Origin: an uncultured Gemmatimonadales bacterium
Lineage (GTDB): Bacteria; Gemmatimonadota; Gemmatimonadetes; Gemmatimonadales; GWC2-71-9
DNA: 64,000 bases
Direction of reading: 5' to 3'
NCBI GenBank assembly: GCA_963779755.1
Contig: CAVZZO010000001.1
Location: 704,001 to 768,000 of the forward strand
Below the pieces are notes generated by a model that saw only the letters and a list, made by a program, of their open reading frames with translations, had not been told where the DNA came from and did not search any database. A program made the position numbers and the translations under genes. Within the stretch, counting starts at the first letter, position 1. Each line of letters begins with the position of its first letter. This document shows, one piece after another, positions 7,482 through 58,619 of this stretch.

Positions 7482-7528
7482 GTGAAACTACCTTCAGCAA
7501 ATATTCGTGAATCCTTCATGATCGGTTC
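7482..7528 (+). promoter_or_regulatory. Putative operator, 11-bp-phased TTC direct repeats (copy 1)
   Basis: GTGAA-N5-CTTCA-N7-TTCGTGAA-N-CCTTC; same spacing upstream of the napA-like gene and feoA. Confidence 0.6.
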
Positions 7529-7570
7529 CCTACGGTTCCTTCAAATTCCCTTCACAGGTCGGGGGTACCG

Positions 7571-9238: not shown

Positions 9239-9249
9239 GGGGCATCGCC

Positions 9250-9980
9250 GTGCGTCACTGGATCGCGTTCGCTCTCCTGGCGGGCGCCGTCACTGCCGCG
9301 AAACCGCGGCCGGTGGCGGCGCCCCCCCGTTTCCATCGACGGCCATCGCGCCGCCCCAGGCGGCGCGCGACACCTTTCCGCATGCCCGGCACACCAGGTT
9401 CTCCTGCCTGACCTGCCACCTGAGCACGTCGCAGTCCATGCTCACCTTCAAACGGCCCGACGGGTGCCGGACCTGCCATCACGCCGACCCGGCCCGGGCG
9501 GAATGCTCCCACTGCCACCAGCCGGACAGCCTGCCGGCGACGATCGAGCGGCACCTTACCATCGCCGCGGCGGGCCGGCCGCCGCATGACCGGGTGGTAG
9601 CCTTCCCCCACGCGCGCCACACCCGCCTGGGCTGCACCACCTGCCACGGCGAGGCGGAGAGCCTGGCGCCGGTCGACTCCGCCGCCACCTGTCAGGGCTG
9701 CCACGACCAGCACCACCGGGCGGGACGGGCCTGCGCCACCTGTCATGCCAACCCATCCATTCTCTCGATCCACGCGCCGCCCGTGCGGGTCCACGTCGCC
9801 TGCGACGCGTGCCACGCCACCGTGGCCATCGCCGCCCTGACCCCGACCCGTTCGTTCTGTCTGGTCTGCCACCGGACCCAAGCGGATCACCAACCGGGCG
9901 GGGAGTGCACCGAGTGCCACTTCCAGGCCAGTCCGGAGGAGTATCGCGCCCGTCTGTTGCGGCGGAGGAAGACCGGATGA
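9250..9980 (+). CDS. Nonaheme c-type cytochrome with an apparent 1-nt frameshift near the 5' end
   Basis: Signal-like MRHWIAFALLAGAV from GTG 9250 is in a different frame from the heme domain (FPHARH..CLTCH upstream of ATG 9438, plus 8 more CxxCH). Confidence 0.8.
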
Positions 9981-16837: not shown

Positions 16838-16844
16838 GGTTGCC

Positions 16845-17822: not shown

Positions 17823-18529
17823 GGCTGGCTCGTGGTCGGAGTTCTGGCGATCCGCGGCGCGCGGAACGGGATCCGCGGCTGAAGCGCGGGCCGGTGCGGG
17901 TCATGGCAATCCGGGCAGGCCATCACCACCCGCCGCCCCTGCCAGCCGTCCAGCCGTTTCCCGTGCGCGCCGTTGGCCCACGCCGTGGCCTGGGGGATGT
18001 GGCACTGGGCGCAGAGCTGGTAGCTCTCATCCAGGCTGACCCGCTTGCCATTGAGCAGGACCAGCGTCCCCACGTCCTCCGGCGCATGGCAGGTGGAGCA
18101 GAGCGCCCCGGTCCGGCTGGGGTGCACCGGCTGGATATTCTGGTGCGCGTCGGCGACCCGCCTGGCCTGCATGACCAGCTTCCGGCCCTGGTGGCAGGAG
18201 GTACAGGGATACTGGCTCAGCGCGGCGGAACGGTTGCGTAGCGCGATGGACAGATTGATCTGGCCGAACTGGCGCGCCTGCCCGGCCTCTGCCTCGGTGG
18301 TCCGGCGGGCCACTTCGAACGGCTGGCCGCCCGGTCCCGTCCATCCTTCCACCGCTATCGCCTCCACCGTCCCCAGCACCCCCGGCTCCCGCGCCGCATT
18401 GCGGGCGCGGGTGGCGGAATCGAGCGGCGCCATCATCTCGGCCGCCTGCTCGCTCCGCGCCAGGGAGCCGTTCCGGCACCCGACGACGATCCCCGCCGCC
18501 AGCAACAAGAGACCGATTCCGCGGGTCAC
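17819..18529 (-). CDS. Tetraheme c-type cytochrome, probable lipoprotein
   Basis: Lipobox VVGC; CTSCH, CSTCH, CAQCH, CPDCH. Confidence 0.85.
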   Translation of the reverse strand: MTRGIGLLLLAAGIVVGCRNGSLARSEQAAEMMAPLDSATRARNAAREPGVLGTVEAIAVEGWTGPGGQPFEVARRTTEAEAGQARQFGQINLSIALRNRSAALSQYPCTSCHQGRKLVMQARRVADAHQNIQPVHPSRTGALCSTCHAPEDVGTLVLLNGKRVSLDESYQLCAQCHIPQATAWANGAHGKRLDGWQGRRVVMACPDCHDPHRPALQPRIPFRAPRIARTPTTSQP

Positions 18530-19344
18530 GGGGCGGCTCCGGTGCTGTCAGCCGGAGTCCACGGCTGGTGCGCGAATGCCTGGGTTTCCCCGCCCGCCTG
18601 TACGTGGCATTGCCGGCAATCGGCCCGGTCGGGATGGGTGGTGCGGACCTCGGCTACCGCCGCGGGCCCCGAGTGGCAGGCCAGGCAGTTCTCCCGGAAC
18701 TGGAGATCGTGCGGGATGGGGGGCGGCGCCTGGTCCCGGGTCAGCGCCGGCAGGGTGGTCCAGACCGTCGTCGGCCAGGTGTAGGACGCCTCCGGCCGGG
18801 GCGCACCGCCGGCGGGGCCGTGGCAGAGATGACAGCGGTCGCTGGGACCGGCGTCGGGGGAGGCGAAGCCCATGACGCGGTCCTCTCCGAGATGGCATTG
18901 CAGGCACATGGTGCGCTCGGGATGGGGCGTCACCGGCGCATAGGCGGCGAAGCGGCGGGAGTAGCCGCCCCGGGCGTGACAGGCGCCGCAGGAGCTCGAG
19001 CGGTACTCGTCGGCGGTAAGGCCGTGGGGAATGCGGGGCGGCGCGCCCTCGTAGGCCCGGAGAAAATGGAATGTCCGCAGGTCGCGCGGGTGCGCCGTGC
19101 GCTGGCGCGGGTCGGCCGGCTCGATGGCCAGCATCGCGGGACTGGTCCGGAAGACCTGGGCCTCGCTGGCGATGGGTTCCTCCGGGACGGCGAGCAGTGG
19201 TACCGCTGGGGCCGGCGCCCGCTCGACCCGGGCGGCATAGGCCCGGCGGACCGCCGCCACCGTTGCCGCCGCCGCCGTGGCCAGGGACGCGACCAGAAGC
19301 GCGCTCATGAGGAGGACCGCGGGCCGCGGGCCGGTGGGGTTCAC
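18526..19344 (-). CDS. NapB-like cytochrome with duplicated domain (5 CxxCH)
   Basis: Two APPxIPH motifs; CGACH, CLQCH, CHLCH, CLACH, CRQCH; GTGA overlap with the upstream stop. Confidence 0.8.
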   Translation of the reverse strand: MNPTGPRPAVLLMSALLVASLATAAAATVAAVRRAYAARVERAPAPAVPLLAVPEEPIASEAQVFRTSPAMLAIEPADPRQRTAHPRDLRTFHFLRAYEGAPPRIPHGLTADEYRSSSCGACHARGGYSRRFAAYAPVTPHPERTMCLQCHLGEDRVMGFASPDAGPSDRCHLCHGPAGGAPRPEASYTWPTTVWTTLPALTRDQAPPPIPHDLQFRENCLACHSGPAAVAEVRTTHPDRADCRQCHVQAGGETQAFAHQPWTPADSTGAAP

Positions 19345-21656
19345 GGTGCCGGCGTTCCCGCGGGCAGCCGCTCCACGCGCACGGCGCACTTGCTGCCGTC
19401 CGGCTCCCCCGACAGCGGGCAGGCCGCATCGAGCATGAGACGCTTGACCGGCAGGTTCTCGTCGAAGTCCGGCGCGAACAGGTGGCCCACCGGCGGCTGC
19501 GACCGATAGTCGATACGCGCCTCCATCACCAGCGATCCCCGGCGGCTCACCACACGGACCATCTCCCGGTTGCGGATGCCGAGGCGCCGCGCGTCTTCCC
19601 GATTGATCTCCACGTAGGCGTGCGGCAGCGCCCGGTGCAGTGCCGGGATCCGCTGGGTGAGTGTCCCCGTGCCCTGATGCTCGAGCACCGCGCCGGTGGT
19701 GAGCCAGAACGGGTAGGCATGATCAGGAGCTTCTGCCGGCGGCTCATAGGGGCGCAGCCAGATCCAGGCCCGGTGGTCCGGGTGGCCGTAGAAGTCGTAC
19801 TCCCCCTTGCCGGCCTCTGCGGCGGGATCGTGGGCCGTGCTGTAGCGCCACTGGACTCCCCGATCGGTGGGGTAGGGCCAGTACGGCCACTGCACGCCCG
19901 GCTGGGAGCGCAGCGCGCTCAGGAGCGGGAGCCGGTCGGGAGCCTCGTCGTGGAAGTGGCGGTATTCCTCCCAGATCTGCTCCACGTGGCGGCTGGGGTC
20001 ATAAGGGAAGAGCTTCGCAAAGCCCAGACGACGCGCGACTTCGATCGTGAGCCAGGCGTCGCCCGTGGCATCGCCCGGCGGCCCCACCAGCCGGTCGAAC
20101 TGCTGGATACGGCGTTCGACGTTGGCGTAGAGGCCCTCCCGCTCAAACCAGAGGGCCGCGGGGAGCACCACATCGGCTACGTCGGTGCTCGCCGTGGGAT
20201 AGGCCGCCGAGACCACGAGGAAGCGGTCCGGCCGGGCCGCGGCGCGGCGGTACCGGTCCAGATCCGGCAGGCTCACCATCGGGTCAGTGGACTGGATCCA
20301 GAGCAGGCGGATGTCTCCAGACTCCAGCCGGCGGAACATCCCCAGCACCGGGGCCGCTGGCCGGAGATCGATCCGCTCCAACGGCACGCCCCAGATTTCG
20401 GCGGCGCGGCGGCGGTCGGCCTTGTTCCGTACCGTTCCACGGGGCAGCGCGTCGGTCAGGCTGCCGGCGTCATGCACCGCGCACCCGCCACTAGGCTGTT
20501 CGCTGAGTCCCAGGGCCCCGTTGCCGGGGCTGGCGATCTTGCCCACCAGCAGATGGAGATTGTACAGCGCGTTGTTGGCCCAGGTCCCTCGGATATCCTG
20601 ATTCACGCCTCGGCCCCAGACGGACATCACCCGCCGCAGCGGATCCCCATAGAGCGAGGCCAGCCAGCGGATGTCCGCCACCTGCATGCCGGAGAGGGCC
20701 TGGACCCGCTCGGGCCGGTAGTCCGAGAGGAACGCCACGTAGTCGTCCCACGTGGCGTCGGCCGGCTGCTCCAGGGCCAGGGTGTCGCCGGCGTCCGCTC
20801 CGAAATCGGTGCGCCCGCGCTGGAACGCGACATGCCGGTCGAGAAAGGCGTTGTCGGCCCAGTTGCGGGCGACGATCTCCTGGCAGATCCCATGGGCGAT
20901 GGCCAGCGTGGCGTGCGGCTGGTACAGCAGGACCTGATCGGCGGCGTAGCTGGTGCGGGTGGCGCGGGTGGCGAGACAGACGATCCGGACGGCCGGATCG
21001 CGCCGCTTCCGCTCCAGCATGCGGGAGAACAGCACCGGGTCGGTCTCGGCCAGGTTGATGTCCCAGAGGACGATGACGTCCGCGTGGTCGATGTCCTCGT
21101 AGCAGCCTGGGGCGCCGTCCTGGCCGAAGCTGCTCCGGAGACCGGCGCTGATGCTGCCGGCGTACAGCCGCGAGCTGGTCTCGATGTTGTTCGTACCCAG
21201 GGCCCCTTTGAACAGCTTGGCCGCGACGTAGGCGTCGGGAATGCTCCAACCGGCCGAGCCGTACATCGCGACGCTGTCCTTGCCGTGCTCCCGCACGGTG
21301 TCCCGGATCCGCTGCGCCACCAGGTCCAGCGCCTCGCCCAGCGGGACCGACACCAGGCCTCCTCCGCGCCGCACCATCGCCTGCCGGATCCGGTCGCGGC
21401 CGTAGAGCGCCTCGACGGAGTTGTAGCCTTTGGCGCAGGCGGACCCCTGGCTCACCGGCGAATCCGGATCGCTCCTGACTGCCACCGCGCGGCCGTTCTG
21501 GATCCCCACCAGCAAACCGCACCCCACACCGCACAATTCGCAGGGTGCTCGTTTCCAGGCCGGTCCGAGAACCGGCAAGACAATCCGGGGGGCGACGACT
21601 GCGGCGGAGGCAAGACCGGCGCTCCCGAGAAACGTCCTGCGGGTGACTCGTCTCAT
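19341..21656 (-). CDS. NapA-like molybdopterin oxidoreductase-family protein, atypical active site
   Basis: Tat TRRTFL; CELCGVGC..CAKG Fe-S motif; NapA-like blocks throughout, but SRLYAGS replaces ARHCMAS. Confidence 0.85.
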   Translation of the reverse strand: MRRVTRRTFLGSAGLASAAVVAPRIVLPVLGPAWKRAPCELCGVGCGLLVGIQNGRAVAVRSDPDSPVSQGSACAKGYNSVEALYGRDRIRQAMVRRGGGLVSVPLGEALDLVAQRIRDTVREHGKDSVAMYGSAGWSIPDAYVAAKLFKGALGTNNIETSSRLYAGSISAGLRSSFGQDGAPGCYEDIDHADVIVLWDINLAETDPVLFSRMLERKRRDPAVRIVCLATRATRTSYAADQVLLYQPHATLAIAHGICQEIVARNWADNAFLDRHVAFQRGRTDFGADAGDTLALEQPADATWDDYVAFLSDYRPERVQALSGMQVADIRWLASLYGDPLRRVMSVWGRGVNQDIRGTWANNALYNLHLLVGKIASPGNGALGLSEQPSGGCAVHDAGSLTDALPRGTVRNKADRRRAAEIWGVPLERIDLRPAAPVLGMFRRLESGDIRLLWIQSTDPMVSLPDLDRYRRAAARPDRFLVVSAAYPTASTDVADVVLPAALWFEREGLYANVERRIQQFDRLVGPPGDATGDAWLTIEVARRLGFAKLFPYDPSRHVEQIWEEYRHFHDEAPDRLPLLSALRSQPGVQWPYWPYPTDRGVQWRYSTAHDPAAEAGKGEYDFYGHPDHRAWIWLRPYEPPAEAPDHAYPFWLTTGAVLEHQGTGTLTQRIPALHRALPHAYVEINREDARRLGIRNREMVRVVSRRGSLVMEARIDYRSQPPVGHLFAPDFDENLPVKRLMLDAACPLSGEPDGSKCAVRVERLPAGTPAP

Positions 21657-40463: not shown

Positions 40464-40510
40464 GTGAAGGCATCTTCATGCCCGCTTCGTGAAGCCTTCT
40501 CGGGCTTTTC
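40464..40510 (+). promoter_or_regulatory. Putative operator, 11-bp-phased TTC repeats (copy 3)
   Basis: GTGAA-GGCAT-CTTCA-TGCCCGC-TTCGTGAA-G-CCTTC; TTC at 40475, 40486, 40497, 40508. Confidence 0.6.
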
Positions 40511-40524
40511 CCACCTTTCTGGTC

Positions 40525-40758
40525 ATGATTTCCACCCTGGCCGATCTGCCCGCCGGCACCGAGGCAACGCTGGAGCGGCTGGAGCTCGAGCCCGATGCGT
40601 CGATCCGCCTGATGGAGCTGGGCTTCTATCCCGGCGCGACGGTGCTGGCGGTTGGCGCGGCTCCAGGCGGCGATCCGCGGGTATTCCGGGTGGACGGGGC
40701 CGATGTAGCCCTGCGGCGGGAAACCGCCCGCCGGGTCCTGCTGCGGGACACGGCGTGA
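40525..40758 (+). CDS. feoA: Ferrous iron transport protein A
   Basis: RLMELGFYPG, APGGDP, VALRR; directly upstream of feoB. Confidence 0.9.
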   Translation: MISTLADLPAGTEATLERLELEPDASIRLMELGFYPGATVLAVGAAPGGDPRVFRVDGADVALRRETARRVLLRDTA

Positions 40759-42650
40759 GTTCCTGCCACGGCGGCGCCGCCACCCTGCGCCTCGAGCCTT
40801 CCGCTGCGGCGGCCACCCAGAGCGTGACGGTGGCCCTGGTGGGGCCTCCCAACGCCGGCAAGTCCACCCTGTTCAACCGGCTGACCGGGCTGCGGCAGAC
40901 GGTCGCCAACTACCCCGGCGTGACAGTCGAAGTCCGCCGGGGCCGGCTCAGGATGGGTCGGGGTCGGGACGTGGAGCTGCTCGACCTGCCGGGCACCTAC
41001 AGCCTGCAGCCCCGCAGCGAGGACGAGCAGGTGACCGACGATGTCCTGCGCGGGCGGATGCCGGGCGCCGGAAAGCCCGATGCCGTCCTGCTGGTGCTGG
41101 ATGCGACCAATCTGGGCCGGCACCTGGTGCTGGCGGCGCCGGTCCTGGCGCTGGGGATCCCCACCCTGGTGGTCCTGAACCTGGTGGACGATCTGGAGCG
41201 GCGCGGCGGAACGGTCGATGCCGCGGCGCTGGCCCGGCAGCTTGGCGCCCCGGTGACCCTGGCCAGCGCAGCCACGGGACGCGGGCTGGAGACCATCCAC
41301 CAGTTCCTCGCCGGCCGGTTCGCGGTCCCCGCGCGGATTCCGCTGCCGGTGATCCAGAACATGCCGGCCTGCCGCGAGTGGGCGGGCCGGCTGGCGCGGG
41401 GTTCCGATTACCGGCCGCCCCTTGCCTCGGCCTGGACCAGGCGGCTGGACCGGGTGTTCCTCCACCCGGTGGCGGGGCCGCTGATCTTTCTGGCGGTGGT
41501 GGTTGCGGTGTTCCAGGCGATGTTCAGCGCCGCTGCCCCTCTCTCGGATGCCATGGAGACGGCAATCACCGGGATGGGGGGCATCCTGGTGGCGCTGCTG
41601 CCGGCCGGCTGGGTCCGCGATCTCCTGGCCCAGGGGGTGGTCGCCGGGGTTGGCTCGGTGCTGGTCTTCCTCCCCCAGATCGCGGTGCTGTTCCTGTTCA
41701 TCGGCGTGCTGGAGGACTCCGGCTATCTGGCCCGCGCGGCCCTTATCGCCGACCGCACCCTGGCCCGGGTGGGATTGCAGGGGAAGTCGTTCATCCCCCT
41801 CCTGTCGGCCTATGCCTGTGCAGTGCCCGCGGTGCTGGCGGCGCGGACGATCGAGAGCCGGCGCGACCGGCTGGCGACCATCCTGATCGCGCCGTTCATG
41901 ACATGCGCGGCCCGGCTGCCGGTGTACACCCTGATCATCGCCGCCTTCCTGCCCAACCGATCGCTCCTGGGTCCGGTGTTCGGCGTCCGGGCCGCCGCGC
42001 TGCTGGGCCTCTATGTGTTGGGGCTGCTGGCGGCAATCGGCACGGCCCGGCTGCTCAAGTCCACCATCCTGAAGAGCGACCGGACGCCCTTCGTGCTGGA
42101 GCTGCCGCCCTACCGCTGGCCTACGCTGCGCTCGCTGGGGCTGCGGCTGGTGGATCGCTCCCGCGCCTTTCTCGCCCGGGCGGGCACGGTGATCCTGGCC
42201 GTGACCGTGGGCCTCTGGGTGCTCTGCCATGTGCCGCGGGTGAACGGGAACGATCCCGACCTGAGCCGCAGCGTGGCCGGCACCCTGGGCCGGGCCATCG
42301 AGCCGGCCATCCGGCCGCTGGGCTTCGACTGGAAGGTGGGGGTGGGCCTGGTGACCTCGCTGGCCGCACGCGAGGTGATCGTGGGGACGCTGGGTACCAT
42401 CAACGGCATTCAGGGCGATGACTCACCCGAAGGGCTGCAGCGGGCGCTGCGGCGCGATCTCTCACCGGCCGGCGCGGCGGCCCTGCTGGTGTTCTTCGCC
42501 TTCGCGATGCAGTGCATCTCGACCATCGCGGTGGTCCGCCGCGAGACGGGCAGCTGGCGGCTGCCGGCGCTGCAGTTCGGCTACATGCTCACCCTGGCGT
42601 GGACCGGCGCCTGGGTGGCGCATTTCCTGGTGACAAGATTGATCGGCTGA
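40755..42650 (+). CDS. feoB: Ferrous iron transporter B
   Basis: GPPNAGKS, NYPGVT, DLPGTYS, EDSGYLARAA, CAARLPVY, FVLELPPY. Confidence 0.95.
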   Translation: MSSCHGGAATLRLEPSAAAATQSVTVALVGPPNAGKSTLFNRLTGLRQTVANYPGVTVEVRRGRLRMGRGRDVELLDLPGTYSLQPRSEDEQVTDDVLRGRMPGAGKPDAVLLVLDATNLGRHLVLAAPVLALGIPTLVVLNLVDDLERRGGTVDAAALARQLGAPVTLASAATGRGLETIHQFLAGRFAVPARIPLPVIQNMPACREWAGRLARGSDYRPPLASAWTRRLDRVFLHPVAGPLIFLAVVVAVFQAMFSAAAPLSDAMETAITGMGGILVALLPAGWVRDLLAQGVVAGVGSVLVFLPQIAVLFLFIGVLEDSGYLARAALIADRTLARVGLQGKSFIPLLSAYACAVPAVLAARTIESRRDRLATILIAPFMTCAARLPVYTLIIAAFLPNRSLLGPVFGVRAAALLGLYVLGLLAAIGTARLLKSTILKSDRTPFVLELPPYRWPTLRSLGLRLVDRSRAFLARAGTVILAVTVGLWVLCHVPRVNGNDPDLSRSVAGTLGRAIEPAIRPLGFDWKVGVGLVTSLAAREVIVGTLGTINGIQGDDSPEGLQRALRRDLSPAGAAALLVFFAFAMQCISTIAVVRRETGSWRLPALQFGYMLTLAWTGAWVAHFLVTRLIG

Positions 42651-44097: not shown

Positions 44098-44229
44098 TCA
44101 GTCGCCGGAATCTCGGTTCCGGCCGCGCCACGCCGCGACGGCGATGGCGGTGCAGACCACGATGGAGGGCAGCACCAGGATCACCATGCCGCTCAGCATG
44201 GCATGGACGAAGCGTTCCATGGTGCTCAT
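44098..44229 (-). CDS. 43-aa single-TM protein at the end of the oxidase operon (not in ORF track)
   Basis: AGGAGG RBS; MSTMERFVHAMLSGMVILVLPSIVVCTAIAVAAWRGRNRDSGD. Confidence 0.65.
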   Translation of the reverse strand: MSTMERFVHAMLSGMVILVLPSIVVCTAIAVAAWRGRNRDSGD

Positions 44230-44254
44230 GGGGCGGCCCTCCTGGGGCGTTGGC

Positions 44255-44557
44255 TCACGGCAGGGGGAGCCGGTGGGAGAAGAGCCGGAAGGCGTCGGGC
44301 CAGAGGTGGTCCATCATGATCAGCACGAATACCAGGGCGGGGATCAGGGCCCAGGCCAGCCGCCGCTCGTAACGGAGGTGCATGAAGAACATGAGGGCGA
44401 TGGCGGCCTCAATCACGGCCAGCCCCAGCAGCGCCGCCAGCCGCTCGTGGACCGTGAGCCCGGCGTAGGTCAGGGCCACCTCGACCGCCACGATGGCGAT
44501 GAGCGCGATCCAGACGATGATATGGGTGCGGAAGCGCGGCTCGGCGTGTTCGGTCAT
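44255..44557 (-). CDS. Cytochrome c oxidase subunit IV family
   Basis: 3 TM; FFMHLRYE motif; operon context. Confidence 0.85.
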   Translation of the reverse strand: MTEHAEPRFRTHIIVWIALIAIVAVEVALTYAGLTVHERLAALLGLAVIEAAIALMFFMHLRYERRLAWALIPALVFVLIMMDHLWPDAFRLFSHRLPLP

Positions 44558-44572
44558 GGGTGGACTCGTGGT

Positions 44573-44688
44573 TCGAAGTTCAGGTCAGGGTCACAAGGGC
44601 CAGGGTCAAAGGTCGAAAGTCAAAGTCCGGCGCCGGCCAGTTTCTCGCGCCCGGGTTCGACCTTCGACCTTGGACCTTGGTCCTCTGG
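44573..44688. repeat. Inverted heptamer-run element inside the cox operon
   Basis: AGGGTC/AAGGTCG-like run followed by TTCGACC TTCGACC TTGGACC TTGGTCC. Confidence 0.65.
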
Positions 44689-44713
44689 AGCCATGCATGG
44701 GGGCCATTCCTCG

Positions 44714-45358
44714 CTACCGGGCCGCGTTCATCAGGTAGACCAGCGGGAACACGAACATCCACACCAGGTCTACGAAGTGCCAGTACAGTCCCAGCGTTTC
44801 GATATGGCCATCATTGAGGCGGCCGCGGCGGAACATCAGAGCGATGGTGCCGATGGCAATGACCCCGCAGATCACGTGGGCCAGGTGCAGCCCGGTAATG
44901 CCGAAGAACGACGCGCCGAAGATCGCCGAGCCGCCCAGGGGATTATGCGACGGGCTCCAGCCCTCATGAAACATGCTGAACCACTCGCGCAGATGCAGCG
45001 CGGCGAAGAGGATCCCCAGCAGCGCGGTAACCCAGAGCCAGCCGGTGCTCGCCGCCCGCCGCCCGGCCCTGGCCGCGGCGACCGCCGCCAGCATGCTGAG
45101 GCTGCTGGTGAGCAGGATCAGGGTCATCACCATGCCGTTGATGATGGTCGGGCTGAACTTGAAGGGCGTGGTCCAGTTGGGGCTGCCCAGGCGCAGGAAG
45201 CCGTAGGCGAACAGAATGGCGCCGAAGGTGGCCGCGTCGGCGATGATGAACAACCAGATGACCAGCTTCTTCGACTCGATCCGGAAGGGAGATTCCTCCT
45301 GTGCGCCGGCGTGGGCGTGCGCGCCGGCGGCCGGCATGGTCGTATCGGTATGAGTCAC
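44714..45358 (-). CDS. Heme-copper oxidase subunit III
   Basis: KLVIWLFI, FFGITGLHLAHV, GLYWHFVDLVW. Confidence 0.9.
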   Translation of the reverse strand: MTHTDTTMPAAGAHAHAGAQEESPFRIESKKLVIWLFIIADAATFGAILFAYGFLRLGSPNWTTPFKFSPTIINGMVMTLILLTSSLSMLAAVAAARAGRRAASTGWLWVTALLGILFAALHLREWFSMFHEGWSPSHNPLGGSAIFGASFFGITGLHLAHVICGVIAIGTIALMFRRGRLNDGHIETLGLYWHFVDLVWMFVFPLVYLMNAAR

Positions 45359-45395
45359 GGGTCCTCCGGAAGAAGGTCGGTCGCTCGCCCGGGGT

Positions 45396-45992
45396 TCAGA
45401 TCCTGAACACCAGCACCACGAACACGTACAGCCACAGCGCCGTCATGAAATGCCAGTAGAGCGCCGCGCCGCGCAGCGCGCCGGCCGGTGAGGGGCCGGT
45501 CATCCGCCCCAGCTTCGCCCGGACATACTGCAGTGCCACCAGCCCGCCGGTGAGGTGCAGCGCGTGCAGCACCGTCAGCAGATAGAAGAACGCGCTGCTG
45601 GGGCTGCTGCTCAGCGAGAGACCCTGGGCCACCAGCTGCCGCCAGGCGATGATCTGGCCCGCCAGGAAGAGCAGCCCCAGCACCAGGGTCAGGGTGATCC
45701 AGCGGAGCGCGTTGGGCGCCACCACCAGGTCGGCCCGGTTCTGCTGGCCCGGCAGGCCCGCCGTGGTTGCCTGCCGCGCGCCGGACAGTTCCAGCGTCAC
45801 GCTGCTCAGCAGGACGATGGCCGAGTTGAGAAACAGGATGGGCGGGAGACGGAAGTGCAGCCAGTCTGCCGCGGCCCCCTCGCGGACCACCATGGCGCTG
45901 GTGTAGGCCGCGAAGGACATGGCGATGGTCGCGATCCCGACCCAGACACCGGTACGGGTCGCTCGGGGAGGCGCGGGTCGCACGGCGGTCAC
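45396..45992 (-). CDS. Second subunit III-family protein
   Basis: FFYLLTVLHALH, YWHFM; ~5 TM. Confidence 0.85.
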   Translation of the reverse strand: MTAVRPAPPRATRTGVWVGIATIAMSFAAYTSAMVVREGAAADWLHFRLPPILFLNSAIVLLSSVTLELSGARQATTAGLPGQQNRADLVVAPNALRWITLTLVLGLLFLAGQIIAWRQLVAQGLSLSSSPSSAFFYLLTVLHALHLTGGLVALQYVRAKLGRMTGPSPAGALRGAALYWHFMTALWLYVFVVLVFRI

Positions 45993-47803
45993 ACGGCCTC
46001 CCCGGGCACGGTCTCGGGCGAGGTCTGCATGACATAGTCGCCCTGCGAGCCGGCCACGCCGTAGACGTCAGGCAGGTGATGCACCACGGGGTGGCGGCCG
46101 CCGAAGTTGTCGACCGGCGGCGGCGAGGTGGTGCTCCACTCCAGCGTGGTGGCTTCCCACGGGTTGTCCGGGGCCACCGGGCCGCGGCGCTTGCTCCAGA
46201 AGAAGTTCCACAGGAAGATCAGCTGCACCGCGCCGGTGAAGAGCGCCGCCACCGTGATGAACCGGTGCAGCGGGATCGACCCCTTCATGTACTCGTCGGT
46301 GAACGCGGAGTAGCGGCGGACGTTGCCCGCCAGGCCCAGGTAGTGCATCGGCATGAAGATGCAGTACACCCCGATGAAGGTCAGCGCGAAGTGGATCTTG
46401 CCCAGCTTTTCGCTCATCATCCGGCCGTAGATCTTGGGGAACCAGAAATAGGTCCCCGCGAACATGGCAAAGATGGCGGCGACCGCCATGACGAAGTGGA
46501 AATGCGCCACGACGAAGTAGGTCCCGTGCAGGTAGGTGTCGATGGACGGCTGCGCCAGGAAGAAGCCGCTGATGCCGCCGCTCACGAACACCGAGATGAA
46601 GCCGAGGCAGAAGAGCGCGGCCGCGGTGAAGCGGATCTTGCCGCCGTACACGGTGCCGATCCACAGCAGGGTCGCGATCGTCGCCGGGATGGTAATAATC
46701 AGGGTCGGAATGGAGAACAGCGTTGCCGAGAAGGGGTTCATCCCGCTCAGAAACATGTGGTGGCCCCACACGGTGTAGCTCAGGAAGCCCACGGCCACCA
46801 TGCAGCCGATGATCACGCGGGGGCCCAGCAGGGGCTTACGCACGAATGTCGGCAGGATGTGGGAGATGATCCCGAACGCCGGCAGGATGGCGATGTACAC
46901 CTCGGGATGGCCGAAGAACCAGAAGAGATGCTGCCACAGGAGCGGGGAGCCCCCGGCGTGGTCCTGCAGCCGGTCGCTCACCACCAGCCCGGCCGGAATA
47001 AAGAAGCTGGTACCGGCCAGCCGGTCGAGCAGCAGCAGGATGCAGGCGGGGAGCAGGACCGAAAAGGCGATCAGGCCGATCACCGAGGTGATGAACCAGG
47101 CCCAGGTGGTGTAGGGCATCCGGCGCAGCTTCATGCCCTTGGTCCGCAGGTCCAGCGTGGTGGAGATGAAGTTGAGCGAGCCCAGCAGCTGGCCGATGCA
47201 GAAGATCCCGATGGATACCACCCAGAGCGTCTGCCCCAGCCCCTGGCCCGGGCCGGCGTCCTGGCCCACGGCGCTGAGCGGGGCGTAAGCGGTCCAGCCG
47301 GAGAGGGCCGGCCCCTGGGGCACGAAGAACGACGCCACCAGCACCAGGAACGCGAGGCAGGTCACCCAGAACGACATCATGTTGAACCGGGGAAACGCCA
47401 TGTCCTCGGCGCCGATCTGGATCGGCAGCATGTAGTTGCCGAAACCGGCGAAGGGAGCGGTGGTCAGTACGAAGAAGACCATGATGGTCCCGTGCATGGT
47501 CATGAGCGAGAGATACATCTCGGGGGTCATGACCCCGCCGGCGGCACCGGTGGGCGCCAGGGTACTCAGGCCGGGAATGGCGAACTTGGGCCATGCCAGG
47601 TGCAGCCGCATGAGCCACGACAGCACCATCCCCGTCACCACCGCCACCAGGGCCAGATCGAGATATTGCTTCCCGATCACCTTGTGGTCGAGGCTGAAGA
47701 TGTGCGTCCGGATAAAGCCGTGCGGGGGTTCGTGCTTGATCTGGCTGATCTTCGCAGCGGTTTCCCGGCGACGGGGTGCGGCGGGCGCTGGGGTGTCGTC
47801 CAT
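45989..47803 (-). CDS. coxA: Cytochrome c oxidase subunit I, A1-type motif, atypical K-channel
   Basis: TMHG, DMAFPR, FGHPEVY, WGHH, HFH, RRY. Confidence 0.93.
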   Translation of the reverse strand: MDDTPAPAAPRRRETAAKISQIKHEPPHGFIRTHIFSLDHKVIGKQYLDLALVAVVTGMVLSWLMRLHLAWPKFAIPGLSTLAPTGAAGGVMTPEMYLSLMTMHGTIMVFFVLTTAPFAGFGNYMLPIQIGAEDMAFPRFNMMSFWVTCLAFLVLVASFFVPQGPALSGWTAYAPLSAVGQDAGPGQGLGQTLWVVSIGIFCIGQLLGSLNFISTTLDLRTKGMKLRRMPYTTWAWFITSVIGLIAFSVLLPACILLLLDRLAGTSFFIPAGLVVSDRLQDHAGGSPLLWQHLFWFFGHPEVYIAILPAFGIISHILPTFVRKPLLGPRVIIGCMVAVGFLSYTVWGHHMFLSGMNPFSATLFSIPTLIITIPATIATLLWIGTVYGGKIRFTAAALFCLGFISVFVSGGISGFFLAQPSIDTYLHGTYFVVAHFHFVMAVAAIFAMFAGTYFWFPKIYGRMMSEKLGKIHFALTFIGVYCIFMPMHYLGLAGNVRRYSAFTDEYMKGSIPLHRFITVAALFTGAVQLIFLWNFFWSKRRGPVAPDNPWEATTLEWSTTSPPPVDNFGGRHPVVHHLPDVYGVAGSQGDYVMQTSPETVPGEAV

Positions 47804-47856
47804 GAGCCTGCCCTTTCAGGGAAGAGAGTGCGCCGGCCAGAGGCCGGGCTCGGGAA

Positions 47857-48657
47857 TCAGTAGCCGGCCTGCTCCTGAAGCCAGGCATCGAACTTGTCCG
47901 GCGCCATGACATCCAGGTATGCCCGCATGTTGTAGTGCCCCAGCCCGCAGAGCTGGGTACAGACGATCTCGGTGTGCGCCGTCTGCGTGGCGGTGAAATG
48001 GACCGGGATCACCAGGCCGGGCACGAAGTCCTGCTGCAGCCGCAACGCGGGCACAAAGAAATTGTGGCTCACGTCCTTGGCATGCAGGGTCAGCAGCACC
48101 GGTTTGTTCACGGGCACGCCGAGGGAGGCCGTGACGATATCGTCCCGGGCCGCCACGTCGTTGGCCGGATCGAGCCCGAAGAAGTTGTAGTTGCCCTCGT
48201 CGATCAGCTCGGGATGAATGGTGCCGAACTTTCCATCGGGGCCGGGGTAGCGAAAGTAGAAGGCGAACTGTTCCGCCTGGACGTCGATCTGGAGCGCGTC
48301 GGCCGGGGCCGGCGAGAGGTAGATCTGGCTCCAGATCCGGGTGCCGACCAGCGACAGCACGATGATCTCCACGCCGACCAGCGCCGAGGCCAGCACCACC
48401 AGCGGGGTGGCTCCGCCGGGGAAGGTCTTGACCGGCCGGTCGTCCCGTTTGTCGCCATAGCGCCAGACGAACGTGGCCAGCGCCAGCTGGGCCAGCACAA
48501 ACAGCACGCCGGAGGCGATGAGGGTCTCGGTGAGCTGATGGTCGATGCCGGCCCCGGTCGTGGAAATGTCCGGCGGCAGCCACCAGATCCGCGCAATGAA
48601 AATGCCGGTGGATACGACGGTGATGATCGCCAGAACCACCGCGAACAGCTTGCCCAT
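47857..48657 (-). CDS. coxB: Cytochrome c oxidase subunit II (CuA)
   Basis: 2 TM; DVSH...CTQLCGLGHYNM. Confidence 0.92.
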   Translation of the reverse strand: MGKLFAVVLAIITVVSTGIFIARIWWLPPDISTTGAGIDHQLTETLIASGVLFVLAQLALATFVWRYGDKRDDRPVKTFPGGATPLVVLASALVGVEIIVLSLVGTRIWSQIYLSPAPADALQIDVQAEQFAFYFRYPGPDGKFGTIHPELIDEGNYNFFGLDPANDVAARDDIVTASLGVPVNKPVLLTLHAKDVSHNFFVPALRLQQDFVPGLVIPVHFTATQTAHTEIVCTQLCGLGHYNMRAYLDVMAPDKFDAWLQEQAGY

Positions 48658-48688
48658 CAGTCCTCCTCGTCGCAGAGAACCCAGGCGA

Positions 48689-48860
48689 ATCCGCGGACTG
48701 CGCAGATTGCGCGGATATCAGATCGAGGATGTGTCCGTGTCGTGAAACCGCTGAGGCCTGTCCCCGGGCCCATCGAAGATGTCCCGCGCAGGCTACGCAG
48801 ACCGGCGCCCGGCGGGGTGCCAATCTGCGTAGTCTGCGCGATCTGCGTGATCTGCGGATC
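48689..48860. repeat. Single diverged CAGATT-family inverted element inside the operon
   Basis: ATCCGCGGACTGCGCAGATTGCGCGGAT ... ATCTGCGCGATCTGCGTGATCTGCGGATC-type arms. Confidence 0.75.
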
Positions 48861-49578
48861 AGTAGGGCAGTGCCTTGAAGACGAAGTCCGCCGTCGCCGC
48901 GCCGCTGGCCGGGACGGTCACTTCCGCGGTCTGCCGGCCGAACCGCTCATGCCACGCGGTGACGGTGTACTTCCCGGCCGGCAGGCCTTCCAACGAGAAC
49001 TTCCCATCCTTGTCGGTGACCGCGTAGTGCCCGTTGTCGAGCACCACGAAGTAGCCGTGCATCCAGGGATGGATGTTGCATTTCACCGGGATGAACTCCG
49101 GCTTGGCATAGCTGGTCTCGATGGGCGGCGCCCCGGACGGCTGCGACTTGTTCCATTCGGGGTTGGTCTTGGCCAACGGATGGATGTTATGCGACGTCTT
49201 GTCGTTATTCCGGATCTCGAGCGGTTGATTGACCTGCATGACCGCGACGTGGGGGACATACTGGCAGCCCTTCTGGTCGTAGTCGACCTTCTGCGTCGCG
49301 GCCTTGCCGCCGGCGGGGGCGCCGGCCGAGATGTACACTACCACGTTGGCCAGCGTGTTACCCTCGCCCTTCACCACTGTTTCGGTCACGACAGGGGAGG
49401 AGTGCTGGGCCGCGCAGCTGGGCTCCTTGGCCATATCGATCGGATGCATCTTGGGCGGCGTGCCGGTAAAGGTCACCGTCCCGGTAATGGAACCGGCCGC
49501 GGGTGCCGGTGCCGCCGGCGCGCCCAGGGTGGCGGTGAAGAGAATCAGAATGGGTGCAGCAACCTGAAGTGTACGCAT
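48859..49578 (-). CDS. Secreted cupredoxin-like / carboxypeptidase-regulatory-like domain protein
   Basis: Signal peptide; DQKGCQYVPHV, HNIH and CNIHPWM (possible type-1 Cu ligands). Confidence 0.8.
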   Translation of the reverse strand: MRTLQVAAPILILFTATLGAPAAPAPAAGSITGTVTFTGTPPKMHPIDMAKEPSCAAQHSSPVVTETVVKGEGNTLANVVVYISAGAPAGGKAATQKVDYDQKGCQYVPHVAVMQVNQPLEIRNNDKTSHNIHPLAKTNPEWNKSQPSGAPPIETSYAKPEFIPVKCNIHPWMHGYFVVLDNGHYAVTDKDGKFSLEGLPAGKYTVTAWHERFGRQTAEVTVPASGAATADFVFKALPY

Positions 49579-49611
49579 CGTTTGACGTCCCTCGACAGAA
49601 AGTCCGGACTG

Positions 49612-50469
49612 TTAGCGGGTGCCAGCCGACTCCGGTCCGATCGGAGCCAGCTCGTTCTGATGTTGCGGCAGCCAGGCGTGCCAGACCGCGGCCTCAGGCG
49701 TCTGCAGCGGCTGCAGGGTGCGGAGGAAGTGCACCAGATCCCAGGCGTCGGCCGGCTGGATGTAGTCGGCGAACGACGGCATGGGGGTGCCGTCCAGCCC
49801 CGTCATGAAGATCCTGTAGATGTCGCGGTTGGTCGAGCCGCACTTGAAGCGCGGCACACCGGCGGCAAAGTTGTACGGCCGGATCGGCTGGTCCTTGCTG
49901 TCGGTCAGCGTGGAGGCCGAGGGGCCGTCGCCGTGGCCCGCGGGGCCGTGGCACTTCCAGCACTCCAGCTTCTGGAACAGTTCCCGCCCGTGCAGGATGC
50001 TCTCGATCGTCACCGGCGGCTCGGGCGGGATATTGATGGGCGTCCCCGCCGACTCGTGCTGCCAGCGGGGCGAGAAGGTCTTGATGTAGGCGATCAGATC
50101 CACCCGCTTCTGCGAAGGCAGCGGCCGCCACTGGGGCATGTTGGTGGTGACGAAGCCGCGGGTGATCGCGTCGTACAGGTCCTGATCGGTGGGCAGCGTG
50201 CCGCTCGGCGTGGACCGGCACTTGAACGTGGCCTGGGTGAAATCCCGCGGCTTGGGGTCGATCCACATGGCGTTCTCACCCTGGCCGTCGCCATTGGGGC
50301 CGTGACAGCCGATGCAGAACCGCCGGTAATACTTCTTGCCGGCCGCGGCGCTGCCGGTCATGCCGTCTACCTTCGTGACCGCCTGGGCCCGGGCCGCCGT
50401 GGCGCCGGCGGTGGTCAGCACCAGGCCGAGCGCGGCGGTGCAGGCCAGCGTGGAGTACAAGCGACGCAT
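49612..50469 (-). CDS. Diheme c-type cytochrome
   Basis: Signal peptide; CIGCH and CWKCH, each with downstream PR/PY.F and MP axial Met motifs. Confidence 0.88.
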   Translation of the reverse strand: MRRLYSTLACTAALGLVLTTAGATAARAQAVTKVDGMTGSAAAGKKYYRRFCIGCHGPNGDGQGENAMWIDPKPRDFTQATFKCRSTPSGTLPTDQDLYDAITRGFVTTNMPQWRPLPSQKRVDLIAYIKTFSPRWQHESAGTPINIPPEPPVTIESILHGRELFQKLECWKCHGPAGHGDGPSASTLTDSKDQPIRPYNFAAGVPRFKCGSTNRDIYRIFMTGLDGTPMPSFADYIQPADAWDLVHFLRTLQPLQTPEAAVWHAWLPQHQNELAPIGPESAGTR

Positions 50470-50487
50470 CTCAAACCTCCCGGGTGG

Positions 50488-51948
50488 TCAGAAGTCGAAG
50501 TCGAGCCCGAGGAAGACGCTGGTGCTCTTCACCGGCGTCGTGGGCGTCAGGGGGTCGACCCCGGCGCCGTCTCCGCTTAGCGGCATGGTTCCGATCGTCT
50601 TGGTGAAGGAGATCTCACCGATCCAGGCCAGGCCCGCCCGGCTGAACATGATGGGATACCAGCGGTACCCCAGCGTGTAGGCGTCCACGTTGCCCATCTT
50701 GTCGGGGATGCCGGGATCCACCTGCTGCGACATCCGCACCAGCTCGCCCCGCCCGATGAAGACGAACTGCGGGTTCACGTAGTAGTGCGCCTCCAGCAGG
50801 TAGTCGTTCCACTTGGAAGCCTGCGTCCCGGCGCCCAGCGCCGCGTCCGAATGGGCGTGCATGAAGAAGGGGATGAACTCGAGCTGGCCGAGGAAGAGAT
50901 CGCCCACGGCGCCCAGCCGGTAGAAGGTCTTGCCGTCGCTGCCGGTCCCCGGAATCGGCTCGCCGCCCACCGTGATGAACGAGGTCGGCCGCTGGCCCAG
51001 GTACCCGAACACCCCGATCCGGGACACGCCCAGCCGCCCGGCGTCGAAGGCCTGGTCGAAGGTGCCGAAGAAGTCGTAGCCCTGGCTGGTGGTCAGCCCG
51101 GCCTCGCCGTTGGACTGCTCCAGCACGGCGACGCTGGCCCGGGTATAGCTGTTGATCGAATGGCCCAGCCATTCGGCGCCGATCTGGTTCTCGCCCAGGT
51201 CGAACCCGGTGCCGTCGCCCACCGGCGCGAAGTGATAGCCCTGATAGAACCCGCCGTTGTTGGACAGCGTCATGCCGCGCTTCTCGGAGAGCATGTTGTT
51301 CAACTCGAACTTGCCCACCTTGAGGTTGGCCCAGGGCGACTTGAACAGGTTGTTGAAACGGACGAACACGGCCTCGAGCGCCGCGCCCCCGTCTTCGAAG
51401 ACCGGGACGAAACCAAAGGAAATGTTCTTGTAGAGGGTGCCCAGCATGAGGAGGTCTGCCCCGCCGATATCGAAACCCGACTGGGTGACGGTCCGCTCGA
51501 TGGTGCCGCCGGTGCCGTCGTCCACCGGCTGGTTGGTGGTGCGCTCCATGCGCCACTGCGGCGTGGTGCGCACCGCCGCGGGCCAGTAGGCCGGGTTGGT
51601 CCAGATGGGCGAATCCCGCTCGTTGCCCATCTGATACCCGTTGTCCTTGAAGGTCTGCCCGAACTCGTTGAGCTCCGGCCACGCCGTGTGGCAGGCCGAA
51701 CAGGGCAGCCCGTATTTGCGGGCAAAGGCCGGAATGGCGGCATTGCGGTGCACCGCATTCAGTCGGGAAGCGATGTACGCGCGGACCGCGGGGGCGGTGG
51801 CGGACAGCGCTACCGGGGCGGCCACGACGGCCCGCGCCGGAGTGGCGGCGGGAGCGGGGGCAGCAGCGAGTGGGGGGACGGCCGGCGACGCCAGTGCCAG
51901 CGTGCCGAGCAGTCCGAGCGAAAGGCCCTTCGTGAACCACGCCATCAT
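50488..51948 (-). CDS. cyc2: Cyc2-like fused monoheme cytochrome-porin
   Basis: AIPAFARKYGLPCSACHTAWPELNEFGQTFKDNGY signature, then a beta-barrel ending in DFDF; AGGAGG RBS before ATG 51948. Confidence 0.82.
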   Translation of the reverse strand: MMAWFTKGLSLGLLGTLALASPAVPPLAAAPAPAATPARAVVAAPVALSATAPAVRAYIASRLNAVHRNAAIPAFARKYGLPCSACHTAWPELNEFGQTFKDNGYQMGNERDSPIWTNPAYWPAAVRTTPQWRMERTTNQPVDDGTGGTIERTVTQSGFDIGGADLLMLGTLYKNISFGFVPVFEDGGAALEAVFVRFNNLFKSPWANLKVGKFELNNMLSEKRGMTLSNNGGFYQGYHFAPVGDGTGFDLGENQIGAEWLGHSINSYTRASVAVLEQSNGEAGLTTSQGYDFFGTFDQAFDAGRLGVSRIGVFGYLGQRPTSFITVGGEPIPGTGSDGKTFYRLGAVGDLFLGQLEFIPFFMHAHSDAALGAGTQASKWNDYLLEAHYYVNPQFVFIGRGELVRMSQQVDPGIPDKMGNVDAYTLGYRWYPIMFSRAGLAWIGEISFTKTIGTMPLSGDGAGVDPLTPTTPVKSTSVFLGLDFDF

Positions 51949-56811: not shown

Positions 56812-56955
56812 AATCCACAGATTACACAGATTACGCAGATTACTGGTGATTGATTTCCGTGATTACTTCAACCCGCAAGCCATCTGGTCGTCGATGCTGG
56901 GAACCCCGCTCAGGGAAGGGGTTAATCTGTATAAATCTGTGTAATCTGTGGATTC
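56812..56955. repeat. Single CAGATTAC-family inverted element
   Basis: AATCCACAGATTACACAGATTACGCAGATT ... AATCTGTATAAATCTGTGTAATCTGTGGATT. Confidence 0.85.
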
Positions 56956-56984
56956 CTCCTCGCGCTCTCGGCGTCCTCGGACTC

Positions 56985-58619
56985 ATGGTCGTGCTGCTAT
57001 GGCCGCGGTATGCCCTTGCGCAGGAGCCCATGCACGGCATGCAGGGCGGTCACACGATGCCCATCCCCATGCCGCCCGGCATGCCCATGATCCCGGGCCT
57101 GGTGGGCATCACGCCGCCGGTGACCCCGTTCCTGCCGGGGCAGGGAGTGGATCCCGCCACCCTGCCCCTGGCAAAACCGGGGACAGTGGTGCGGCTGGCC
57201 GACGGCGATACGCTGGACCTCACCGCCATGCTGGTGCGCCGCACCATCCGGGGACGCACCTTCACCATGTACGGCTTCAATGGGCAGGTGCCCGGCCCGT
57301 TGCTGCGGGTTCCGCAGAATGCCACCATCATCATCCGCTACCGCAACCGGATCGACCTGCCGGGCACGGTGCACTGGCACGGGGTGCGGCTGGATAACCG
57401 CTTCGACGGCGTCCCCGGGGTGACGCAGGCGCCGGTGGCCCCGGGCGACAGCTTCACCTACCGGGTGCATTTTCCCGATGCCGGCATCTACTGGTACCAC
57501 CCGCACGTGCGGGAGGATATCGAGCAGTCCATGGGGCTCTACGGCAACATGCTGGTGGACTCCCCGGACCGGGACTATTACTCCCCCGCCAACCGGGAGG
57601 AGGCGCTGGTCCTGAGCGATCTCCTGATCAACGGCGACAGTCTCATCCCCTTCGGCCGGGAGGGCCCGGATTTCGCGCTGATGGGTCGGCTGGGTAACGT
57701 GCTGCTGGTGAACGGCGAGCCCGCCTACCGCCTGCGGGTGCACCAGGGCGAGGTGGTGCGGTTCTACCTCACCGACGTGTCCAGTTCGCGTACCTGGAAC
57801 CTGTCCTTCGGCGGGGCGCCCATGAAGGTGGTCGCGTCCGATGTGAGCCGGTTCGAGCACGAGGCGCGGGTCCAAAGCGTGGTGCTGGCGCCCGCCGAGC
57901 GCTATGTGGTCGAGGTCCGCTTCGAGCGGCCGGGGACGTACACCGTGGTGAACTCGGTGCAGGCCATCAATCACTACCGCGGCGAGTTCGAACCCGAGGT
58001 GGACACGCTGGGCACCGTCACCGTAGACTCCACGCCGGCCGCGCCCGATTATGCCGCAGCCTTCGACTCCCTGCGGGCCTACTCCGCGGTGACGCGGGAG
58101 ATCGACCGCTACCGTCCCGACTTCGACCGGCCGCCGGACAAGACGCTCACCCTGACGGTGCGGACCACCGCGCTGCCGCTCGCCACCGTGCAGTTCATGA
58201 GCATCGACACCGCCTATTACGCGCCGGTCGAGTGGGTGGACGGGATGCCGATAATGAACTGGCTCTCGACCAGCAAGCAGGTACGCTGGATCCTGCGGGA
58301 CGAGGCCGGGCGGGAGAACGACGACATCGACTGGCACGTCAGGCGCGGCTCGGTGGTGAAGCTCCGGCTGTTCAACGACCCGAAATCGTTTCACCCCATG
58401 CAGCACCCCATCCACCTTCACGGTCAGCGGATGCTGGTGGTGGCCCGCGACGGCGTGGCCACCACAAACCTGGTGTGGAAGGACACGGTGCTGGTGCCGG
58501 TGGGGTCGACGGTGGACGTGCTGATCGACGCCTCGAACCCCGGCAACTGGATGCTGCACTGCCATATCGCCGAGCACCTGGGCTCGGGGATGATGACCGT
58601 GCTGCACGTGGATCCCTGA
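56985..58619 (+). CDS. Multicopper oxidase (start uncertain)
   Basis: HWHG, WYHPH, HPIHLHG, HCHIAEH..GM; Met/His-rich N-terminus. Confidence 0.92.
   Translation: MVVLLWPRYALAQEPMHGMQGGHTMPIPMPPGMPMIPGLVGITPPVTPFLPGQGVDPATLPLAKPGTVVRLADGDTLDLTAMLVRRTIRGRTFTMYGFNGQVPGPLLRVPQNATIIIRYRNRIDLPGTVHWHGVRLDNRFDGVPGVTQAPVAPGDSFTYRVHFPDAGIYWYHPHVREDIEQSMGLYGNMLVDSPDRDYYSPANREEALVLSDLLINGDSLIPFGREGPDFALMGRLGNVLLVNGEPAYRLRVHQGEVVRFYLTDVSSSRTWNLSFGGAPMKVVASDVSRFEHEARVQSVVLAPAERYVVEVRFERPGTYTVVNSVQAINHYRGEFEPEVDTLGTVTVDSTPAAPDYAAAFDSLRAYSAVTREIDRYRPDFDRPPDKTLTLTVRTTALPLATVQFMSIDTAYYAPVEWVDGMPIMNWLSTSKQVRWILRDEAGRENDDIDWHVRRGSVVKLRLFNDPKSFHPMQHPIHLHGQRMLVVARDGVATTNLVWKDTVLVPVGSTVDVLIDASNPGNWMLHCHIAEHLGSGMMTVLHVDP

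Follow-up and report, generated by a model that had tools for sequence, protein, structure and literature searches.

A nine-gene cassette and its conservation

We analysed a window of 64,000 nucleotides from the genome of an uncultured Gemmatimonadales bacterium (contig CAVZZO010000001.1, positions 704,001 to 768,000), in which an earlier note had read a cyc2 - diheme c - copper protein - cox gene order like that which Acidithiobacillus ferrooxidans has in its rus operon. This order was confirmed on the minus strand at 44098-51948, where nine genes lie in the order cyc2 - diheme c - cupredoxin - coxB - coxA - coxC - coxC' - coxD - 43-amino-acid open reading frame (ORF). The genes and two repeat regions are listed below with the evidence for each.

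50488..51948, minus strand: Cyc2-family fused cytochrome-porin, 485/486 amino acids (motifs, AlphaFold2 model, Foldseek)
49612..50469, minus strand: Kustc0457-type periplasmic diheme cytochrome c, 2 CxxCH (PDB and profile matches, ligand columns)
48859..49578, minus strand: cupredoxin with an amicyanin-like C-x2-H-x2-M loop and a beta-sandwich domain (ligand columns, model, Foldseek, PF13620)
48689..48859, no strand: repetitive extragenic palindromic (REP)-like inverted repeats of 9-nt period between the cupredoxin gene and coxB (hairpin search)
47857..48657, minus strand: CoxB, subunit II, with CuA ligands and no heme c (PF00116, residue columns)
45989..47803, minus strand: CoxA, A1-type subunit I (PF00115, E 2.3e-134; alignment to 6adq_F; 76-row column counts)
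45396..45992, minus strand: CoxC, subunit III, first copy (PF00510)
44714..45358, minus strand: CoxC', subunit III, second copy, conserved across related loci (PF00510)
44594..44684, no strand: REP-like inverted repeat between coxC' and coxD (hairpin search)
44255..44557, minus strand: CoxD, subunit IV (PF03626)
44098..44229, minus strand: 43-amino-acid single-helix membrane ORF (tblastn in relatives)

From cyc2 to the 43-amino-acid ORF, the distances between consecutive genes are 18, 33, 201, 53, -4, 37, 156 and 25 nt, and REP-like hairpins lie in both long gaps (201 and 156 nt). Pfam assigned a diheme cytochrome c, COX2, COX1, two COX3 and COX4 within the cassette. The first gene had no Pfam or NCBIfam match at E<=0.01, and the sole Pfam match of the cupredoxin gene was its C-terminal beta-sandwich. 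The 43-amino-acid ORF is likely an accessory oxidase subunit. A scan for promoters found 0 sites (1.2 expected) and 6 terminator-like sites (5.1 expected), and is uninformative because these counts are close to expectation. About 270 nt upstream of cyc2 (52221-52193, minus strand), inspection by eye showed a perfect TTGACA spaced by 17 nt from a weak -10, which the promoter scan did not call. The GC content of the cassette (65-68%, against 68.5% genome-wide) gave no clear sign of a recent transfer into this genome.

The conservation of the cassette was followed in two sets, namely 20 of the 26 other genomes of the phylum with a close Cyc2 orthologue and the best 80 of 575 public loci; the sets partly overlap, and kin within them are not independent. 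The order cyc2-diheme-cup-coxB-coxA was intact in all 20 relatives and in 63 of the 80 public loci, while 13 loci were too short to judge and 4 were without the oxidase. The diheme gene stood immediately behind cyc2 in 70 of the 72 loci having at least 1 kb of downstream sequence. The small ORF was detected by tblastn behind coxD in 15/20 relatives (one of these 20 is truncated), and its C26 was present in 20 of 21 alignment rows. In 11 acidobacterial loci spanning its place, the first coxC copy was not found (counted by eye). All eight close CoxA orthologues among 61 relatives sit in cyc2 cassettes or in genomes with a cyc2 orthologue. These results show that the cassette is real and conserved, not a chance association.

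The carriers belong to Gemmatimonadota and Acidobacteriota, and the nearest named homologues come from Gemmatimonadales. Of 301 genomes sampled from the host phylum, 27 held close Cyc2 orthologues (E below 1e-50): the source genome (G000), 23 of 124 of its family and 3 of 70 of a second family, with none elsewhere in the phylum sample; some Cyc2-like match occurred in 121 of the 301. In the phylum sample of an Acidobacteriota record, 10/401 genomes, counting the centre genome, matched at E<=1e-40. On the direction of interphylum transfer, quick trees, compared with no approximately unbiased (AU) test, conflict: Cyc2 nests Acidobacteriota inside Gemmatimonadota and CoxA shows the reverse. Many frameshifts run across the cassette in L050 (G215) and also in L055, L083 and L113, possibly long-read errors or decay. 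Near the cassette, we noticed by eye a response regulator in 13/80 loci, a sensor kinase in 17/80 and a heme O synthase-like gene in 7/80 (L083, L097, L099, L106, L114, L118 and others).

Cyc2, the diheme cytochrome and the cupredoxin

Cyc2 proteins are defined by the motif AXPXFAR[Q/K][T/Y] upstream of a single CXXCH, with PXL four residues downstream (as set out in passages of 10.1101/228056). Residues 70-92 of the first protein (P0001) carry the upstream motif, one CxxCH (C82, C85, H86) and the downstream PxL, and P72, F74, A75, R76, K77, Y78, C82, C85, H86 and P90 were invariant in 96/96 rows (92 distinct); the C-terminal residue is Phe. The AlphaFold2 model, with a mean predicted local distance difference test (pLDDT) of 84.3, has a small heme domain of helices and a barrel in which DSSP gave a count of 16 strands, and Foldseek retrieved porins with it (8jto, Omp32, OprP and OprO; E 5.8e-12 to 1e-9). 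No PDB chain matched the protein by sequence. By its motif and its predicted 16-strand barrel, P0001 is a Cyc2-family protein, in agreement with the cytochrome-porin of Cyc2 signature that had been read here. Ten distant relatives bore no names of use for placing it in a Cyc2 cluster, a plasmid search with Cyc2 gave 9 short matches confined to the motif region, and the ESM Atlas returned hypothetical clusters plus one porin family on 20% of members. The source genome holds two further stand-alone Cyc2-like genes, which are 33% and 27% identical in the N-terminal part (L053:9608-11002 and L054:9659-10858); the first and P0001 have a stretch of about 15 residues in common before the Cyc2 motif, which may be a pro-segment.

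In the diheme cytochrome, the ligands C52/C55/H56/M111 and C170/C173/H174/M230 were present in 90/90 rows, together with two extra invariant cysteines, C84 and C210. Its best PDB match was 6H5L_B (E 6.4e-53), with homology over the full length, and an 85-row profile again placed 6H5L_B on top (E 1.6e-69) with the next match at 2e-8. We take PDB 6H5L to be Kustc0457/0458. Cyc1 (1H1O) was missing from the 40 PDB matches of the profile at E<=0.1, and the profile search thus ruled out that the diheme is Cyc1 (cytochrome c4); it is Kustc0457-like instead. In the anammox bacterium Kuenenia stuttgartiensis, Kustc0457 is described as the diheme partner of a nitrite-reducing octaheme protein resembling reductive hydroxylamine oxidoreductase (HAO) (passages of PMC8042395). 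Whereas Kustc0457 serves an octaheme enzyme, the cassette diheme is predicted to bind Cyc2 and has the two extra cysteines.

The copper protein had been noticed for its H..CxxHxxM ligands, and these (H130, C167, H170 and M173) were invariant in 86/86 rows. Foldseek of its model (pLDDT 88.6) ranked a NirK domain, amicyanin and plastocyanin first and AcoP at 45-46, with a TMt of 0.34-0.35 for AcoP vs 0.68 for amicyanin, and AcoP was not among the 25 sequence matches. The low Foldseek rank and the lack of a sequence match ruled out that it is Cup/AcoP. The middle components therefore differ from those of the rus operon, as the earlier note had supposed, the diheme not being Cyc1 and the copper protein not being AcoP.

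A complex of Cyc2 (69-485) and the diheme (30-262) was predicted with three hemes. The prediction reached an ipSAE of 0.79, vs 0.00 for the best of 3 controls; the ipSAE mark was reached by 116/157 solved complexes and by 2/215 mismatched pairs, rates that apply only roughly because our own alignments and ligands were used. Runs shared at least 93% of contacts, with a partner pLDDT of at least 89. The predicted interface sets Cyc2 78-84 and 94-98 against diheme 49-55 and 105-121, i.e. both heme sites, and places the Cyc2 heme motif and the following helix at the first heme site of the diheme, using the invariant residues F95 and G96 of Cyc2 and M111, P112 and W114 of the diheme. Recall of a similar complex is unlikely, because the PDB holds no Cyc2-like chain by sequence. 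Cyc2 is thus predicted to dock on the first heme of the diheme. For Acidithiobacillus, the route is described as leading from Cyc2 to rusticyanin first (passages of PMC10654088).

The oxidase and its relation to the rus operon

The residues H104, H299, H348, H349, H434, H436, Y303, E301, D134, N123 and N141 of CoxA were kept in 76/76 rows (72 distinct), so that the D-channel (N123, D134, N141 and helix VI E301) is retained. By its six histidines, tyrosine, D-channel and CuA partner, CoxA is assigned to the A1-type heme-copper oxygen reductases. Alignment to a mycobacterial subunit I (6adq_F) and to the genome's own caa3 placed the K-channel lysine at A377 and the K-channel threonine at A374. 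The lysine position holds V/I/A/M/L or another residue, with Lys in 0/76 rows, and the threonine position is Ala in 73, Ser in 2 and Met in 1 of the 76. Other invariant polar residues of helix VIII are S364, T367 and T371. In addition, the aspartate following H426 is replaced by Gly/Ala in 76/76 rows (G427 here). In CoxB, the CuA ligands H198, C233, C237, H241 and M244 were present in 83-85 of 85 rows and helix E97 in 85/85, and the glutamate of the CuA loop is replaced by Gln (Q235) in 83/85. We take the G427 and Q235 positions to be Mg-site ligands.

This enzyme is one of five heme-copper subunit I genes in the genome: a lysine-bearing caa3, a second lysine-less A-type without the helix VI Glu, the cassette CoxA, a ba3 type and an eNOR-like gene, the last two typed by eye. 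The cassette oxidase is therefore extra to the canonical caa3. The second lysine-less gene lies at G000:C3:1734583-1736514 and has Trp for the helix VI Glu; the eNOR-like gene lies at C3:28279-30000.

In the rus operon of Acidithiobacillus, Acidiferrobacter and Acidihalobacter, the genes run cyc2-cyc1-cup-coxBACD-rus (passages of PMC10654088). The cassette has the same functional order, and subunit I lacks the K-channel lysine in both. In contrast, its diheme and cupredoxin are of other types, it has two COX3 genes, and rusticyanin (TIGR03095) was not found in the 97% complete source genome by a search whose control scored in 1 of 14 genomes, below the cut-off. Since the diheme and the copper protein differ and rusticyanin was not found, the cassette has the rus layout with different parts. 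Table_3 of PMC8239418 lists the rus oxidases under A2, Thr being retained and Lys and the subunit II Glu lost, whereas the cassette oxidase is A1 (E301), has lost Thr and keeps the subunit II Glu (E97). These differences point to separate losses of the lysine in the two oxidases. None of the Gemmatimonadetes and Acidobacteria rows of the same table lacks Lys. The cassette likely works like the rus operon, and is not a member of it; the gene set and the conserved order support the self-contained, rus-like chain from surface to O2 that the earlier note had proposed. According to passages of PMC5982212, the A. ferrooxidans counterpart of the diheme reduces that of the cupredoxin. The Cluster 3 protein Cyt572 of Leptospirillum has a similar N-terminal motif (passages of PMC13741234), but the periplasmic carrier there is given as Cyc579 (passages of PMC10654088).

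This type of cluster was already noted in a 2020 preprint, passages of which describe rus-like clusters in Gemmatimonadetes with non-Cyc1 cytochromes, doubled COX3 and no ctaA in the cluster. The cassette has all these properties, ctaA lying elsewhere, and is probably identical with those clusters. For these clusters, the preprint passages mention neither the Kustc0457-type diheme, nor the cupredoxin type, nor the loss of Lys, and 'cyc2' is absent from the main text and supplements of the published version (PMC8239418). In the same passages, a transfer from ancestors of acidophilic iron oxidisers is inferred; against this view, the cassette parts are non-orthologous, and CoxA groups with Gemmatimonadota A1 oxidases in a tree without rus sequences. 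Our literature searches listed no report of a functional test of the cassette, its Kustc0457-type diheme or its loss of Lys.

In this quick CoxA tree of 31 rows, two sister sequences, L141 and L142, group beside the cassette enzymes (Shimodaira-Hasegawa-like approximate likelihood-ratio test, SH-aLRT, 100). The next group outward retains Lys, and its oxidase stands behind diheme and cupredoxin homologues in 6/8 loci. In the four loci checked upstream (L144, L146, L147 and L152), the first gene of the cluster is cytochrome bd subunit I-like (Pfam confirmed for two), and it is joined by c-type cytochromes, an extended diheme, a cupredoxin and the lysine-bearing A1 oxidase. Since these outgroup loci pair diheme and cupredoxin with a bd-like front end, the pair looks like a reusable wire that may take different front ends.

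Electron flow, its donor and the genome context

We propose that the conserved cassette likely forms an electron uptake chain from the outer membrane to O2 with dissolved Fe(II) as its most likely donor, a proposal that on the whole analysis we hold at about even confidence. Inward electron flow to the cassette oxidase is probable, because an O2-reducing enzyme stands at the end of the chain; that Fe(II) is the main donor is a finely balanced matter. The donor would reduce the single heme inside the Cyc2 barrel, and the diheme, by the predicted contact, would bind the periplasmic side of Cyc2 with its first heme. From the second heme of the diheme, electrons would pass to the type-1 copper protein and from there to the CuA of the dedicated A1 oxidase, in which subunit II carries no heme c itself. 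We infer that O2 would then be reduced via the D-channel or a rebuilt route, proposed because the K-channel has lost its Lys and Thr. From the chain the host would draw proton-motive force, while its carbon would come from organics (lithoheterotrophy). RuBisCO and acetyl-CoA synthase were not found in the 4.23-Mb, 97% complete genome, in which the 3-hydroxypropionate bicycle was not searched; this agrees with the heterotrophic lineage presumed earlier. From the search for ATP-citrate lyase, in which the control matched nowhere, no inference was drawn.

Several observations weigh against this proposal. The sister oxidases L141 and L142 lack Lys and have no cyc2, diheme or cupredoxin in their loci, the L142 locus being a 4.6-kb contig. 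As this sister oxidase has no adjacent cyc2, the loss of Lys is not specific to Cyc2, and the idea that it arose as an adaptation to Cyc2 coupling is weakened. Blocking the K-channel is described to halt oxidase turnover in model enzymes (passages of PMC10095113), so that O2 reduction here needs an unproven workaround. Four of the 80 public loci hold cyc2 and the diheme without an oxidase, and all 80 records are metagenome-assembled genomes (MAGs), with no cultured carrier found among them. The hosts of the Nitrospira-type relatives of Cyc2 are, to our knowledge, not known as iron oxidisers. The nearest named relatives of the outgroup P0180 (37% identical to P0001) are of this Nitrospirota/Nitrospira type, and no Leptospirillum appeared among its best 120 matches. 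Finally, cyc2 is reported in many bacteria that do not oxidise iron (passages of PMC5566968), and no verified Cyc2 stood among the rows of our Cyc2 tree.

These points bear above all on the donor. In a quick 67-row tree, built from every second of 77 cassette rows with 26 distant relatives and two paralogues, the cassette Cyc2 formed its own clade on a long stem (0.8; SH-aLRT 100). Because Nitrospirota proteins are the nearest named outside relatives, the comparison suggests that it belongs to Cluster 3; Cyc572 has been linked to homologues in Acidobacteria and Nitrospira (passages of PMC10654088). A possible, though less favoured, alternative is that the chain is the same and its main donor is not Fe(II), but reduced humic quinones, Mn(II), mixed-valence minerals or partner cells. 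The long-stemmed clade is in keeping with it, as are the hosts, MAGs of Gemmatimonadota and Acidobacteriota, which we do not know as iron oxidisers. In the literature, the function of Cluster 3 is called the most uncertain (passages of 10.1101/228056), and a 2024 survey holds that annotation cannot tell the direction or role of Gemmatimonadota Cyc2 (passages of PMC11316326). However, one verified member of each Cyc2 cluster oxidises Fe(II) (10.1101/228056, same passages), and the operon layout equals that of proven iron oxidisers (passages of PMC10654088), both of which argue for Fe(II).

It is unlikely that the lysine-less oxidase is mainly a peroxide-reducing enzyme or an uncoupled oxidant sink, the chain then protecting the cell during Fe(II)/O2 chemistry with little energy gained. 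K-channel mutants are described to lose oxidase activity but retain partial peroxidase activity (passages of PMC10095113), and the invariable replacement of Lys and Thr, together with the changes at the two presumed Mg-site acids, would fit such a role. However, the lysine-less oxidases of Acidithiobacillus serve respiration, and the cassette keeps the D-channel, Y303 and all subunits, with S364, T367 and T371 of helix VIII as candidates for a new route. Least probable, and in our view quite improbable, is that Cyc2, diheme and cupredoxin handle or sense metals (e.g. with FeoAB) beside an oxidase that is a mere neighbour: feoAB is about 1.4 kb away from the cassette end and also neighbours the sister oxidase of L141, and the four oxidase-free loci point the same way, but feoB recurs in 1/80 and 0/20 loci and the eight close CoxA orthologues all belong to cyc2 cassettes or to genomes with a cyc2 orthologue.

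If the donor of the proposed uptake chain is Fe(II), lineages regarded as plain heterotrophs participate in iron oxidation. Tentatively, and with more doubt than for the chain itself, heterotrophic Gemmatimonadales and Acidobacteriota may have built a chain from Fe(II) to O2 separately from Acidithiobacillus, by placing a Cluster 3-type Cyc2 on an existing diheme-cupredoxin wire, which in relatives would start at a cytochrome bd-like membrane protein, and adding a natural A1 oxidase able to function with neither the K-channel Lys and Thr nor the Mg-site acids. Were this so, the diheme would be the first direct Cyc2 partner, CoxA a wild-type one-channel A1 oxidase, and the carriers an overlooked guild of iron-oxidising heterotrophs. 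The cassette offers a complete, cloneable test of the function and the electron-accepting partner of the least understood Cyc2 group, and its oxidase is a natural A1 case on which to study why A-type oxidases need the K-channel, a long-standing question. To the published passages on such clusters, our analysis adds what type the diheme is, its predicted docking to Cyc2, the wire that bd-like clusters share and, as a limit on the adaptation story, the lysine-less sister.

Elsewhere in the genome, CtaA, cytochrome c assembly genes and cytochrome b are present, and 14 ORFs carry at least 4 CxxCH motifs. The flanking genes for M14, feoA, feoB, M1, an LVIVD-like protein and a multicopper oxidase showed no recurrence in the 20 relatives and 80 loci, except feoB in one of the 80, and FeoAB, the multicopper oxidase and the peptidases were rejected as members of the system. 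In the window, feoA-feoB occupies 40489-42650 (plus strand), and the multicopper oxidase, CueO/CopA-like, lies 5 kb upstream of the cassette at 56850-58619 (plus strand). At 7511-12885 (plus strand), multiheme cytochromes with 8, 9 and 16 CxxCH surround a gene without a Pfam match, possibly a porin, and together form a candidate porin-cytochrome conduit. One string at 15548-21656 (minus strand) combines a molybdopterin oxidoreductase, small multiheme cytochromes, a 4Fe-4S protein and an NrfD-family membrane subunit. Outside the window, very large multiheme ORFs with up to 23 CxxCH lie at G000:C1:249634-253532 and C3:769232-781201, and one of these groups adjoins a cytochrome b gene.

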